From IMG/VR virus record IMGVR_UViG_2529292835_000021: DNA of 8,007 nucleotides. One strand, written 5' to 3'. This DNA is from a virus (taxonomy: Duplodnaviria; Heunggongvirae; Uroviricota; Caudoviricetes). This document shows positions 2,353 through 7,336 of this stretch, one piece after another. The notes beneath the pieces are model-generated. The model was given only the letters and a program-made list of their open reading frames with translations, ran no database searches and was not told the origin of the DNA. Numbering within the stretch: position 1 is the stretch's first letter; each line of letters opens with the position of its first letter. A program made the position numbers and the translations under genes.

Positions 2353-2511
2353 CGTTGATGGGCTTTTTGTGCTGTTTACTACTGTTTGTTTTTATTAATT
2401 CGCCGTGAATGAATAAGAAGAAACGATTTGTATTTCACTATAAAAATTACGAATTGCTTTAAGTGGCTTTAAATGACTTTAAGTGGGAATGAACAAAAAA
2501 CACACAGTCAT

Positions 2512-2529
2512 TGTAAGGCTGCCGGAACA
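2512..2529 (+). promoter_or_regulatory. Delta/Ogr-type activator site TGT-N12-ACA for the rightward late promoter (PLL-like)
   Basis: tgt aaggctgccgga aca at 2512-2529. Centre at 2520.5 puts the rightward start near 2575, about 55 nt upstream of the vis ATG. It is divergent from the Psid site on the other side of the iterons. Confidence 0.55.
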
Positions 2530-2631
2530 AATCCCCCCTGTTGCGTCTGCCAAAAATATTCACAAAATAAAGCGCTACCCGAAGCCGGACGGACTTATCC
2601 GGTGCTGTATGGACATTAACGAGGTAGCCCG

Positions 2632-2898
2632 ATGCAAGCTGTTTTTTCTTCCCCGTCTCCCGCCCCTGTGACGCCACTGATGCCGCTGCCGGACATCACG
2701 CAGGAGCGTTTTTTACGTCTGCCGGAAGTGATGCACCTGTGCGGCCTGTCACGCTCGACCATCTATGAACTCATCCGTAAGGGGGAATTTCCGCCGCAGG
2801 TGAGTCTTGGCGGTAAAAATGTGGCCTGGCTGCACTCTGAAGTCACCGCATGGATGGCCGGCCGCATTGCCGGACGCCAACGGGGGTATGACGCATGA
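2632..2898 (+). CDS. vis: AlpA-family small DNA-binding regulator (Vis-like late-promoter regulator / excisionase-like)
   Basis: 88-aa ORF with the AlpA-type HTH core ([44 protein letters not shown]); GAGG RBS 7 nt upstream. First gene after the PLL-like site, as for P4 vis. The true start could be the internal Met (MPLPDITQ...). Confidence 0.65.
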
Positions 2899-3449
2899 TG
2901 ATGCCTGTTCTGCAAAAAGTCCCTTTTTCTGGCTTGCCTTTTTCCGGCATTTGCGGATATAGTTTTTCCGCTGCCGCAAAATCGGCAGCCGGGCGTGAGA
3001 ACCCGAGTATGTTATCGGCGACATATGACGCGCCATGCGTCTTTTTTTGTGTCGTTGCTTCGGCACACCTGTTTTTCTGGCTGTGGTTTTTAAACCGTAG
3101 CCTCTGTCAGATAATGGTGGTCCGGGCGGGGCAGCCTTCGGGCTGGCCGGTTTCCGATAACGCCGGTATTCTCACCCCCGTCTGGGCTATCGCCATCGAG
3201 CGTGAGAACTCCGGCGATAGCGTCATTTACGCTGTTATCGGAGGTTGCCTTATGGCTACGACCCTTACCCCCTCACACCCTGAATTTGTCTTTGTGTTTG
3301 CGGCTGTCCGTCGCGCAGACCGTCATCCCCGTATCTGTATGCTTCGCACCGTCGCCGGTGATGAACGCAGCGCCCGCCGTTCCCTTGTCCGTGACTATGT
3401 GCTCTCCCTTGCTGCCCGTCTGCCGGTGGTGGAGGTGTCCCGTGCGTAA
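2895..3449 (+). CDS. eta: eta-like long ORF, in frame with and containing kil
   Basis: Frame 3 is open from ATG 2895 (atgatgatg, overlapping the vis stop at 2896-2898) to 3449. It spans the PLE-like promoter and immunity-RNA region and ends as the 65-aa kil ORF. This matches the published description of P4 eta as a long ORF starting upstream of PLE with kil as its terminal part. Low-complexity N-terminal translation, so whether it is translated here is unproven. Confidence 0.45.
2934..2963 (+). promoter_or_regulatory. Candidate sigma70 promoter (PLE-like): TTGCCT-N18-TATAGT
   Basis: -35 ttgcct (2934-2939) and -10 tatagt (2958-2963) with 18-bp spacing; predicted start ~2970, about 25 nt upstream of the seqA-like block. 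Located inside eta and upstream of kil, as described for P4 PLE. Confidence 0.4.
3105..3185 (+). ncRNA. cI: Candidate CI-type immunity RNA containing a seqB-like block (boundaries approximate)
   Basis: seqB-like block 3154-3175 (CCGATAAC-gccggta-TTCTCAC) is antiparallel-complementary to an upstream block at 2995-3018 (GTGAGAA-cccgagtat-GTTATCGG) and a downstream block at 3202-3215 (GTGAGAA-ct-CCGGC). A 10-nt direct repeat gcgtgagaac occurs at 2993-3002 and 3200-3209. A GC hairpin with TTCG loop (cagcc-ttcg-ggctg, ~3131-3143) precedes seqB. Ends of the RNA cannot be set from sequence. Confidence 0.4.
3252..3449 (+). CDS. kil: Kil-like small protein (65 aa; Icd-like cell-division inhibitor family)
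   Basis: ATG at 3252 with GGAGG 7 nt upstream gives exactly 65 aa ([26 protein letters not shown]...), the length reported for P4 Kil. It is the first ORF with a strong RBS downstream of the PLE-like promoter and is nested in the eta frame. Confidence 0.6.
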
Positions 3450-3729
3450 TAAAAAAGCCCCTCAGACCGTCTCAGCACGTCATGACGCCCGTGAACACCT
3501 CAGCATTGAGGCTTACCATAAGCTCAACCGCGCCAGCGCCGTATCCCGGTTTGTTGGGGGTGATTTGATTCACCGTGAACTCTCCGGCCTGCATCAGCTC
3601 TACATTCCGCATATTTTCAGCTACCTGAATGAAGATATTGATTTTGTGCTGAATGAGCTGAAAGCCAAAGGCCTGTGCCGCGATTTTCTCGCCCAGCAGA
3701 AAGACCGGGGAGACAGGACGCATGTTTGA
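3442..3729 (+). CDS. epsilon: Epsilon-like protein (P4 E, antirepressor of helper prophage), 95 aa from a GTG start
   Basis: Frame-1 ORF; the first plausible start is GTG 3442 with GGAGG (3431-3435) 6 nt upstream, giving 95 aa. It overlaps the kil stop by 8 nt and its stop overlaps the orf151 start (atgtttga at 3722-3729). Position matches P4 epsilon; the name rests on synteny and my recollection of size. Confidence 0.55.
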
Positions 3730-4177
3730 TTTTCCCCAGCCCGGTGAGATTTACCGTTCTGCCGGTTTTCCCGATGTGGCCGTGGTCGGCATTCTGGAAG
3801 ACGGTATTCCGTGGGAAATGCCGTACCGCTGCCCGGACATTGTCTGGAACCCGTACCGCCGTAAATTCAGTATCCTTGTACGTATCCTCGCTGACGGGCG
3901 CACCACAGACATCCCGCTGGGGCGTTTTCTGCGGGAATTTACCTGTGACCGTCCTGACCTGTTTAAACGCAGCCCCGTAAACCGGCATGCGGTACTGAAA
4001 GAAATGGCCGGAGACCCGGAATTACAGAAATGGCGGGAGAAATATCTGGATATTTACCCGCAGGACACTGTTCCGGCCAGCCGGGCGGCACCGGTGGCGC
4101 GGGAATGGCGGGAAATTCCCCGCACGGAGCCTGACCCGGAAATCACCCCGGATAACAGTTACCGCAATTATCTGTAA
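3722..4177 (+). CDS. Conserved P4-family protein of unknown function (orf151 equivalent)
   Basis: 151-aa ORF, coupled to epsilon by an 8-nt overlap; same length and position as P4 orf151, between epsilon and cnr. Confidence 0.6.
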   Translation: MFDFPQPGEIYRSAGFPDVAVVGILEDGIPWEMPYRCPDIVWNPYRRKFSILVRILADGRTTDIPLGRFLREFTCDRPDLFKRSPVNRHAVLKEMAGDPELQKWREKYLDIYPQDTVPASRAAPVAREWREIPRTEPDPEITPDNSYRNYL

Positions 4178-4647: not shown

Positions 4648-6979
4648 ATGAAAATGAACGTAACCGCCACCGTCAGCCATGCGCTCGGCCACTGGCCGCG
4701 TATTCTCCCGGCGCTGGGGATTCAGGTGCTGAAAAACCGTCATCAGCCCTGTCCGGTCTGTGGCGGGAGTGACCGCTTCCGTTTTGATGACAGGGAGGGG
4801 CGCGGCACCTGGTACTGCAATCAGTGTGGTGCCGGTGACGGCCTGAAACTGGTTGAAAAGGTGTTTGGTGTTTCCCCGTCCGACGCGGCCGCAAAGGTGG
4901 CTGCCGTGACCGGCAGCCTGCCACCGGCTGACCCGGCAGTGACGACCGCCGCCGTTGCTGAAACAGACGCTGCCCGGAAGAACGCCGCCGCACTGGCACA
5001 AACCCTGATGGCGAAAACCTGTCCCGGAACCGGTAACGCCTACCTGACCCGCAAGGGCTTTCCCGGCCGGGAATGCCGGATGCTGACCGGCACACACAGA
5101 GCCGGTGGCGTGAGCTGGCGCGCCGGTGACCTTGTGGTGCCACTGTATGACGACAGCGGCGAACTGGTTAACCTTCAGTTAATCAGTGCTGACGGCCGTA
5201 AGCGCACCCTGAAAGGCGGACAGGTCAGGGGCACCTGTCACACCTTGAAGGACAGAATCAGGCCGGAAAACGTCTGTGGATAGCGGAGGGATACGCGACC
5301 GCACTTACCGTCATCACCTGACCGGTGAAACGGTGATGGTGGCGCTTTCTTCCGTGAACCTCCTTTCTCTGGCCAGCCTTGCCCGGCAGAAGCATCCGGC
5401 CTGTCAGATTGTCCTTGCTGCTGACCGTGACCTCAGCGGTGACGGCCAGAAAAAAGCCGCCGCAGCCGCAGATGCGTGTGAGGGCGTTGTTGCCCTGCCG
5501 CCGGTCTTCGGTGACTGGAATGATGCCTTCACGCAGTACGGCGGGGAGGCCACCCGTAAGGCCATTTACGATGCCATCCGGCCACCGGCTGAAAGCCCGT
5601 TCGACACCATGAGCGAAGCAGAGTTTTCCGCCATGAGTACCAGCGAAAAGGCCATGCGTATCTATGAGCATTACGGCGAGGCGCTCGCGGTCGATGCCAA
5701 CGGCCAGCTTCTGTCCCGTTATGAAAATGGTGTCTGGAAGGTGCTGCCGCCACAGGACTTTGCCCGGGATGTGGCCGGGCTGTTTCAGCGTCTGCGCGCG
5801 CCGTTCTCCTCCGGGAAGGTGGCCTCCGTGGTGGACACCCTGAAGCTGATTATTCCGCAGCAGGAAGCCCCCTCCCGCCGCCTGATTGGCTTTCGTAACG
5901 GCGTGCTCGACACGCAGAACGGCACGTTCCACCCGCACAGTCCGTCACACTGGATGCGCACCCTGTGCGATGTGGATTTCACCCCGCCGGTGGAAGGGGA
6001 AACGCTGGAAACCCACGCCCCCGCGTTCTGGCGCTGGCTTGACCGTGCCGCCGGTGGCCGTGCGGAAAAACGCGACGTGATTCTGGCCGCACTGTTTATG
6101 GTGCTGGCAAACCGCTACGACTGGCAGCTCTTTCTGGAGGTGACCGGTCCCGGCGGCAGCGGCAAAAGTATCATGGCCGAAATCGCCACCCTGCTGGCCG
6201 GGGAGGATAACGCCACGTCGGCCACCATCGAGACGCTGGAATCCCCGCGTGAACGTGCCGCGTTAACTGGCTTCTCACTGATACGCCTGCCGGACCAGGA
6301 AAAATGGAGCGGCGACGGAGCCGGACTCAAGGCCATCACCGGCGGCGATGCGGTGTCCGTTGACCCGAAATACCGGGATGCGTACTCCACGCATATCCCG
6401 GCGGTGATTCTGGCCGTCAACAATAACCCGATGCGCTTCACCGACCGCAGCGGCGGCGTGTCACGCCGGCGGGTGATTATTCACTTCCCGGAACAGATAG
6501 CCCCGCAGGAGCGCGACCCGCAGCTTAAAGACAAAATCACCCGCGAGCTGGCAGTCATCGTGCGTCACCTGATGCAGAAGTTCAGCGACCCGATGCTCGC
6601 CCGGTCACTGCTTCAGTCCCAGCAGAACTCAGACGAGGCACTGAACATCAAACGGGATGCCGACCCGACGTTTGATTTTATCGGCTATCTGGAAACCCTG
6701 CCGCAGACCAGCGGCATGTATATGGGGAACGCCAGTATCATCCCGCGCAATTACCGTAAATACCTCTATCACGCCTATCTGGCCTACATGGAGGCAAACG
6801 GCTACCGGAATGTACTCAGTCTGAAAATGTTCGGGCTGGGGCTGCCGGTGATGCTGAAGGAATACGGACTGAATTACGAGAAGCGCCATACCAAACAGGG
6901 GATACAGACCAACCTGACGCTGAAAGAGGAAAGCTACGGCGACTGGCTGCCAAAATGTGACGACCCTGCAACAACCTGA
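4648..6979 (+). pseudogene. alpha: alpha primase-helicase (Zn-binding primase N-term, TOPRIM, D5_N, P-loop helicase, C-terminal DNA-binding), frame-disrupted by two 1-nt frame changes
   Basis: N-terminal 211-aa ORF (4648-5283, frame 1) has the CPVCGG...CNQCG zinc motif. The C-terminal 567-aa ORF (5276-6979, frame 2) has the TOPRIM DxD (VLAADRDLSGDG) and Walker A (GPGGSGKS). The TOPRIM glutamate motif AEGYATALTV is encoded only in frame 3 (5283-5312). Stitching 200 + 22 + 555 codons gives 777 aa, the length I recall for P4 alpha. AAGGAG RBS before ATG 4648. Confidence 0.85.
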
Positions 6980-7020: not shown

Positions 7021-7036
7021 ATCCCTGAATTCCCCG

Positions 7037-7336
7037 AAGGTGAACAATCCACTGTTCACCCTTCACCGTATATTCACCCGTTATCACACTGAAATTAAAA
7101 GAGAAAAATGAAAGGTGAACAGTGTGAACAATCAAATCAAAAAAAACTTTTTTTCTCCCTGTGTGATTTCAGTACGGGGGATTAATCACCGGTATGAGTC
7201 ACACCGGCAGAATGCCGGAGGTGAAGAATCGAATGTTCACCCTTCACCCATTATTCACCACCTATCAAACTGAAATAAAAGGAGAAAACAGAAAGGTGAA
7301 CAGTGTGAACAGTTCTTTCGAAAAAAAACTTTTTTC
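7037..7336. repeat. crr: crr-like cis replication region: two ~119-bp direct repeats with 181-bp period, each carrying TGTTCACC/GGTGAACA iterons
   Basis: Unit A 7037-7155 and unit B 7218-7336 align along their length with scattered mismatches, separated by a 62-bp spacer. Each has GGTGAACA/TGTTCACC copies (A: 7039-7046, 7053-7060, 7114-7121; B: 7234-7241, 7295-7302) plus degenerate variants and ends in an A8-C-T6/7 tract. Matches the P4 crr description (two ~120-bp repeats ~60 bp apart). Confidence 0.8.

Follow-up and report, generated by a model that had tools for sequence, protein, structure and literature searches.

A P4-like satellite prophage carries an immunity region with a predicted CI antisense RNA and covarying targets on either side

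Introduction

The immunity system of the satellite phage P4 has been known since the 1990s, and its repressor, the CI RNA, is matured to about 79 nucleotides (nt) by RNase P and 3′ trimming. Here we analyze an immunity region of this type in the IMG/VR virus record IMGVR_UViG_2529292835_000021, a stretch of 8,007 nt (hereafter the window) that belongs to a P4-like satellite prophage. The CI RNA of P4 is a substrate of RNase P (PMC5499578) and pairs with two sequences named seqA and seqC, which leads to premature termination of transcription (PMC4825925). The Rfam families C4 and IsrK correspond to the CI RNA and the seqA RNA of the P4 literature, respectively (PMC3632133), and the seqA RNA of P4 has been called a structural homolog of IsrK (PMC4825925), which is encoded by the Salmonella prophage Gifsy-1. 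Related arrangements are the immI loci of P1 and P7 (c4-icd-ant), whose C4 RNA is also matured by RNase P (PMC5499578), and the anti-immunity locus of N15 and phiKO2 (CA RNA-icd-antA-antB). Heteroimmune relatives of P4 are also known, an example being the retronphage phiR73 (Sabbattini 1996, cited in PMC7567579).

A preliminary description of the window had proposed a P4-type module in which a CI RNA carries a block, seqB, that pairs with seqA and seqC inside the nested reading frames eta and kil. Homology and synteny with P4, Rfam matches and covariation bear this proposal out. We are highly confident that the region is a P4-like satellite immunity module, most likely working as it does in P4. 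This view is based on homology, RNA family, architecture, complementarity beyond chance, covariation at three sites and conservation of the eta frame.

Results

The locus corresponds to the P4 immunity region

Positions 2600-3500 of the window are 95.1% identical to phage P4 at the DNA level. As a whole, the window shares 98.4% identity with an element of Escherichia coli 504237, which adjoins a tRNA-Thr gene downstream of proA. The order of the genes is also that of P4, with psu, delta and sid on the minus strand, followed on the plus strand by vis/orf88, the immunity region, epsilon, orf151 and the gene for the alpha primase, and the protein families found include AlpA, Icd-like and Derepression. 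Two RNAs of the immunity region were identified by covariance models. The Rfam C4 model identifies the cI gene (Table 1), and the isrK model (RF01394) matches positions 2970-3047 with 71.2 bits (gathering score 50) over model positions 1-77, which is the full model. In addition, the target motif model c4-a1b1 (RF03163) matches positions 2957-3009 with 50.8 bits, above its gathering score. The system is thus an already known one that Rfam detects directly. The preliminary description had also placed a promoter just upstream of the pairing blocks, and such a promoter is present. It is of the PLE type, with the hexamers TTGCCT (2934-2939) and TATAGT (2958-2963) separated by an 18-nt spacer, and is predicted to be active; the P4 record X02534 marks the identical TATAGT hexamer as '-10'.

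The minimum free energy fold of the CI RNA (-45.8 kcal/mol) consists of a long closing stem (3115-3131/3176-3192) and two hairpins. Hairpin 1 ends in a CUUC loop. A block that we name a′ (CCGATAAC, 3154-3161) lies in the loop of hairpin 2, and a single-stranded linker holds a second block, b′ (TTCTCAC, 3169-3175). A 76-nt dyad annotated in X02534 maps to positions 3116-3191, which corresponds to the closing stem. The stem is followed by GCCA at 3192-3195, as fits an RNase P substrate, and the mature CI RNA is predicted to extend from about 3115 to about 3195, a length of ∼80 nt. As a side observation, ten Ralstonia phage records have matches to the CI core that span 7% of the query (81.5-86.4% identity among the best matches listed).

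Two bipartite targets are complementary to the CI RNA

In the leader, upstream of cI, a′ has an exact complement of 8 bp named a1 (GTTATCGG, 3011-3018), and b′ has an exact complement of 7 bp named b1 (GTGAGAA, 2995-3001). Downstream of cI, b′ is exactly complementary to b2 (GTGAGAA, 3202-3208) as well, and a′ extended by T3153 (3153-3161) pairs over 9 bp with a2 (GTTATCGGA, 3234-3242), so that the downstream target is also bipartite. The CI RNA can therefore form perfect helices of 8 + 7 nt with seqA and of 9 + 7 nt with seqC. The preliminary description had reported that the flanking blocks share a 10-mer, which is indeed present (GCGTGAGAAC, at 2993-3002 and 3200-3209), and its pairing of 3154-3175 with 2995-3018 by helices of 8 and 7 nt was right to within one base. 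Its pairing of the same block with 3202-3215 stands only in part: b′ does pair with 3202-3208, but the extension to 3211-3216 shows no covariation and a2 had been overlooked. The extension corresponds to a helix that CGCCGG (3161-3166) is able to form with CCGGCG (3211-3216). We rejected it as a part of the interaction; it has 0 compensatory pairs, which equals shuffles, and it is discounted because GCCGG is the invariant stem of CI hairpin 2 and because 3213-3221 covaries with 3186-3194 instead.

The strength of the two duplexes was assessed with RNAduplex, using 2000 dinucleotide shuffles of the probe as control. The energy of 3150-3180 with the leader (2965-3024) was -35.8 kcal/mol (shuffle mean -19.0, standard deviation (SD) 3.2, z = -5.25), and that with 3198-3256 was -32.3 kcal/mol (shuffle mean -16.7, z = -5.35); none of the shuffles was as low for either target. 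When the window was divided into 60-nt tiles on both strands, these two targets also ranked best, except for the antisense strand of the probe itself. Thus both duplexes, whose stability beyond chance the preliminary description had singled out for checking by folding, lie about 5 SD beyond shuffles.

Both interactions covary among related elements

Loci were gathered from IMG/VR through the kil region (79 loci) and through an invariant CI core pattern (120 stretches). Haplotypes with full flanks numbered 137, and covariation was analyzed in an alignment (A2) of 41 rows, with one sequence per allele combination. In this alignment the two b helices, b1:b′ and b2:b′, are each paired in 100% of the cells, with compensatory changes in 6 of their 7 pairs. 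The a helices behave similarly: a1:a′ is paired in 97.6-100% of the cells (6/8 pairs compensatory) and a2:a′ in 96.9% (6/9 pairs compensatory). Taken as a whole, the seqA:seqB structure is paired in 96.5% of the cells versus 34-44% in slid controls, and none of 500 shuffles matched its pairing or its covariation score; for seqC:seqB the corresponding values are 98.5% versus 32-45%, and there, too, the shuffles stayed below the observed pairing and covariation score. The stems of the CI RNA are paired in 96-100% across the 41 types. Moreover, RNAalifold, run without a prior structure, selects the long-range helices between seqA and seqB, a hairpin named t1 in the leader and the hairpin that displays b2. 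The preliminary description had made its case depend on whether related elements conserve the complementary blocks. They do so, in the form of covariation of both interactions across 41 allele types.

The alignment to the P4 cI region that the preliminary description had called for gave a result of the same kind. Between P4 and the window the a block is swapped in a coordinated manner at all three sites: the CI RNA has CCTGTGAA in P4 and CCGATAAC in the window, and both seqA and seqC have TTCACAGG in P4 and GTTATCGG in the window. The b block is unchanged.

The upstream target precedes an intrinsic terminator

The leader RNA starts with hairpin 1 (2970-2976/2983-2989), followed by hairpin 2 (2990-2993/3002-3005), the loop of which displays b1. 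Target a1 comes after hairpin 2. A terminator scan detected a t1-like intrinsic terminator between PLE and cI, which consists of a stem at 3027-3041 and a run of seven T residues at 3042-3048. The leader hairpins and the t1 stem stay paired with compensatory changes, and a GC-to-CG swap is found in 15 of the 41 sequences. A hairpin at 3007-3026 was considered as an antiterminator and rejected, being specific to the window and not kept in P4.

The downstream target overlaps the start of kil

Target b2 is displayed in the loop of a hairpin whose arms (GCTATCGCC and GGCGATAGC, 3186-3194/3213-3221) are paired in 98.9% of the cells, with compensatory changes in 4 of the 9 pairs. This hairpin takes its 5′ arm from sequence that also forms the 3′ arm of the closing stem of the CI RNA, and the two structures are thus mutually exclusive. 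As both covary, they may constitute a switch between precursor and processed RNA. Target a2, which has perfect 9-nt matches in nearly all loci, overlaps the ribosome-binding site (RBS) of kil. This Icd-like gene is the first translated gene downstream of PLE and has 63-65 codons in 124 of 127 haplotypes.

In agreement with the preliminary description, the region lies inside one long open reading frame (ORF), eta, that ends as the RBS-driven 65-aa ORF (Table 1). Eta encodes 184 aa here and 199 aa in P4, and begins, as in P4, with three ATG codons (MMMPVLQK) upstream of PLE. Of 126 haplotypes, 120 keep the reading frame of kil open beyond the leader, whereas 3 and 2 do so for the two alternative frames, indicating that eta is conserved on top of the RNA gene. 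Within eta the 10-mer GCGTGAGAAC is read as R-E-N at both sites, and the b1 alleles are read as R-E-N, R-R-N, R-G-N or I-G-V. These are radical residue changes, which argues that the blocks are selected as RNA and not as protein. The family PF10554 Phage_ASH covers eta residues 22-131 (2958-3287), which are the translated leader and CI RNA gene, and annotations of E. coli genomes call the region an 'ash family protein' pseudogene. Current annotations thus label an RNA gene as a protein.

Recognition blocks are diverse and form many combinations

The 137 haplotypes comprise 22 a-alleles and 8 b-alleles, which occur in 43 combinations. All four targets are fully paired with the CI RNA of the same haplotype in 123 of them; in 7 others seqC is matched and seqA is mismatched to its own CI, and in 2 the reverse holds. 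The immunity blocks are also a hot spot of divergence, since 42 of the 131 differences between the window and its 98.4%-identical relative fall in 2997-3260. The immunity haplotype as a whole (2930-3260) does not occur in any of 5,426 complete E. coli genomes, where the best match over its full length is 90.1%. Its make-up resembles a mosaic in which the short spacer of loci L003 and L076 is combined with the a and b alleles of the L079 group. Four natural hybrids were noticed separately (L037, L047, L042 and L023, at ∼1640-2010 of each), in which the a-allele of the leader differs from that of the CI and seqC of the same locus, a pattern that a crossover in the spacer would produce. In two of them, L042 and L023, neither target is matched by a′.

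The order of the blocks in the DNA is b1 a1 ... a′ b′ b2 a2. With this order a matched reassortant of a and b needs three crossovers or stepwise compensation, and yet the matrix of a-alleles by b-alleles is well filled, which suggests strong diversifying selection for types of satellite-against-satellite exclusion. We tentatively suggest, from sequence comparison, that antisense immunity in P4-like satellites could be organized as a large, modular code of a 'two-word' kind, with a and b as independent determinants of specificity. The CI RNA goes unmentioned in the satellite surveys that were searched for it, and the population-level picture, that is, the combinatorial a-by-b code and the hot spot, may be undescribed so far.

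Features of the region and neighboring genes

The coordinates of the features are collected in Table 1.

Table 1. Features of the immunity region and its flanking genes, with positions in the window
Feature	Position	Strand	Basis
vis/orf88 (AlpA-family excisionase and regulator)	2632..2898	+	88-aa ORF; PF05930 Phage_AlpA, 74 bits; aligns to P4 ORF88
eta, long frame containing cI and ending as kil	2895..3449	+	ORF lists; PF10554 Phage_ASH and Icd-like
PLE-type promoter TTGCCT-N18-TATAGT	2934..2963	+	sole sigma-70-like match in 2400-3800; identical to P4
Leader RNA (seqA / IsrK-like)	2970..3048	+	Rfam, terminator scan, fold
Variable spacer between leader terminator and cI	3049..3109	+	alignments; 45 nt shorter than in P4, in-frame, eta frame kept
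cI gene, CI (C4-family) antisense RNA	3110..3197	+	Rfam C4 RF01695, 75.7 bits (gathering score 45), full length
Hairpin GCTATCGCC/GGCGATAGC displaying b2 (GTGAGAA, 3202-3208) in its loop	3186..3221	+	covariation; RNAalifold de novo
Target a2 (GTTATCGGA, 3234-3242) and overlapping kil RBS GGAGG (3240-3244)	3234..3244	+	covariation, sequence
kil, 65-codon Icd-like gene	3252..3449	+	NF033153 phage_ICD_like, 76 bits; annotated Icd-like in E. coli genomes
epsilon (helper derepression protein)	3442..3729	+	PF25738 Derepression, 170 bits; aligns to P4 epsilon

The context gene upstream of the module is vis/orf88, the stop codon of which overlaps the first ATG of eta (ATGA). By analogy with P4, epsilon is most likely the first gene whose expression the immunity module would gate. 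A second hot spot of divergence is present at 2388-2508, where 35 of the 131 differences from the 98.4%-identical relative are located. Within it, the decamers CTTTAAGTGG/CTTTAAATGA/CTTTAAGTGG occupy the site of the 'ori type 2 repeats' of P4, which could reflect replicon specificity. In addition, two direct repeats of ∼120 bp that are ∼83% alike are found downstream of alpha (7034-7153 and 7215-7335), in the position that the cis replication region, crr, occupies in P4.

Discussion

A proposed mechanism modeled on P4

The mechanism that we propose takes the RNA ends, their processing, the terminators that would respond, the Rho dependence and the activity of this copy from the P4 literature. 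The constitutive PLE promoter would transcribe the leader, the untranslated cI gene and the kil-epsilon-alpha (replication) operon, and the primary transcript would be processed to the CI RNA, with RNase P making the 5′ end and trimming producing the 3′ end. The CI RNA would offer a′ in the hairpin 2 loop and b′ in the single-stranded linker next to it, and would pair in trans with the nascent PLE transcript at the two bipartite sites. At seqA, where b1 is presented in a hairpin loop together with a1 just upstream of t1, pairing would raise termination at t1, and the system would thereby also be self-limiting. At seqC, which is made up of b2 in its hairpin loop and of a2 and overlaps the kil RBS, pairing would block translation of kil; the untranslated RNA would then be terminated downstream, so that epsilon and alpha would not be expressed. 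A prophage, or a superinfecting element with the same a and b sequences, would stay repressed, specificity being set by these two blocks. Transcripts that start upstream, at PLL, would be translated across the region through the whole eta frame and would thus escape. In P4, downstream termination reportedly takes place at t4 and at the Rho-dependent timm; these two sites, t1 and the translation of kil and eta are reported to have been described by Forti and colleagues in 1999 and Briani and colleagues in 2000.

Several points weigh against a P4-like working of this copy. How pairing of CI with seqA favors t1 is not readable from the sequence, and neither the folds nor RNAalifold revealed a conserved antiterminator that would explain CI-dependent termination at t1. 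The seven haplotypes with a mismatched seqA suggest that pairing at this site may be dispensable. Site timm could not be placed, although the stretch 3250-3299, rich in C and poor in G, weakly hints at Rho loading. Finally, the gene for the alpha primase-helicase (region 4648-6979) is interrupted: compared with the closest E. coli relative it has single-base deletions at 5242 and 5311, which leave two ORFs (4648-5283 and 5276-6979) in place of one. Unless these deletions are sequencing errors, the prophage may be defective in replication and the module unused.

Alternative explanations

A narrower explanation is that the locus works only in the manner of P1, P7 and N15. A C4-like RNA would then mask the kil RBS, the leader site with seqA and t1 would be a non-regulatory decoy or buffer, and silence downstream would follow from lost translational coupling and Rho polarity. 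The overlap of a2 with the GGAGG of an Icd-like ORF, as described for a2/b2 and icd in P1, is in line with this, as is phiKO2, where 76.7% DNA identity over leader and CI is followed by icd-like and antirepressor genes; so is the observation that, among haplotypes that are not fully matched, those matched at seqC only outnumber those matched at seqA only (7 versus 2). We nevertheless consider this explanation unlikely, since covariation with CI is as tight for a1 and b1 as it is for a2 and b2, and since conservation of the t1 hairpin and its U-tract, with the compensatory GC-to-CG swap, argues for selection on the leader site. Termination at t1 of P4 was, moreover, reported by Briani and colleagues in 2000 to depend on both CI and seqA. 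The explanation is in any case a sub-case of P4-like immunity and no true alternative to it.

The split alpha gene would also be compatible with an intact-looking relic, that is, a conserved module in a defective prophage with nothing left to regulate. The frameshifts in alpha may be sequencing errors, however, and the four target blocks match CI perfectly while the promoter, t1, the RBS, kil and the eta frame are all intact; besides, a CI RNA in a defective prophage would still exclude elements of the same type and repress the toxic kil. A relic is hence quite improbable. The last explanation to be weighed is that the blocks are due to chance, or reflect a peptide motif repeated in the Eta/Ash protein (GRENP, IERENS), and do not serve recognition between RNAs. 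This would account for the R-E-N encoded at both sites and for the Pfam Phage_ASH family spanning the stretch. It is refuted, however, by duplex energies ∼5 SD beyond shuffles and by the 12-13 positions per interaction that covary with CI across all a- and b-alleles, and the allelic residue changes are radical (E, R or G; or I-G-V). We regard its probability as negligible, and P4-like immunity as the explanation to retain.

Implications

It follows that the stretch should be annotated as a CI/C4 antisense RNA gene with a seqA (IsrK-like) leader and a seqC target, and that the label 'ash family protein' pseudogene is inappropriate for it. A textbook RNA-based immunity switch can be recovered here from sequence alone. 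Of modest but practical wider interest is that P4-like satellites combine the recognition blocks in many ways and still keep them complementary. Novelty is limited, and only the population-level picture may be mildly new. Combinatorial a/b variation with complementarity at three sites provides a natural set of orthogonal antisense repressor-target pairs, and the blocks allow satellite immunity groups to be typed straight from genome sequences.

Comparison with known systems

The locus shares with immI of P1 and P7 the RNA families RF01695 and RF03163, as identified by covariance models. As described for C4, a′ and b′ pair with a1/b1 upstream and with a2/b2 downstream on the same transcript, and the downstream target extends over the RBS of an Icd-like gene (a2 at 3234-3242 over GGAGG at 3240-3244). 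Unlike in P1 and P7, the genes under control would be the satellite genes epsilon and alpha, for helper derepression and replication, and not the antirepressor Ant, and the host element is a P4-like satellite and not a P1-like plasmid prophage. An antirepressor gene ant was not found downstream of kil, where the genes are epsilon, orf151 and the alpha primase gene. The anti-immunity locus of N15 and phiKO2 resembles the window in having a leader and an RNA gene (76.7% DNA identity); in the N15-like Klebsiella phage phiKO2 (1501-1926 of locus L206) an annotated terminator takes the place of t1, and icd-like, AntA and AntB genes come next. The difference is that their locus precedes the antirepressor genes AntA and AntB in a linear plasmid-prophage. 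The module would work like immI and the N15/phiKO2 locus, but it is a member of neither, as no antirepressor gene follows here.

The leader resembles IsrK of Salmonella Gifsy-1 in its two 5′ hairpins, single-stranded stretch and intrinsic terminator, in addition to the full match to RF01394. IsrK has been described to act in trans on its own read-through mRNA (orf45-anrP), the translation of which it activates, whereas the leader analyzed here would, by analogy with P4, be a target of the CI repressor RNA. The lambdoid Gifsy-1 context (isrK-orf45-anrP-isrJ) is absent at the locus, its context being a P4-like left operon.

The closest system is that of P4 itself, together with its heteroimmune relative phiR73. 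The locus belongs to the P4 immunity family, and all defining features of this family that can be looked for in a sequence are present: the same place and gene order with 95% DNA identity, identical PLE hexamers, the CI fold (Rfam C4), bipartite targets up- and downstream of cI, a t1-type terminator, and nested eta and kil with three ATG codons. The window differs from P4 in its a block at all three sites, CCGATAAC/GTTATCGG here versus CCTGTGAA/TTCACAGG in P4, the b block being common to both, and in a spacer between leader and cI that is 45 nt shorter, which results in an Eta protein of 184 aa instead of 199 aa.

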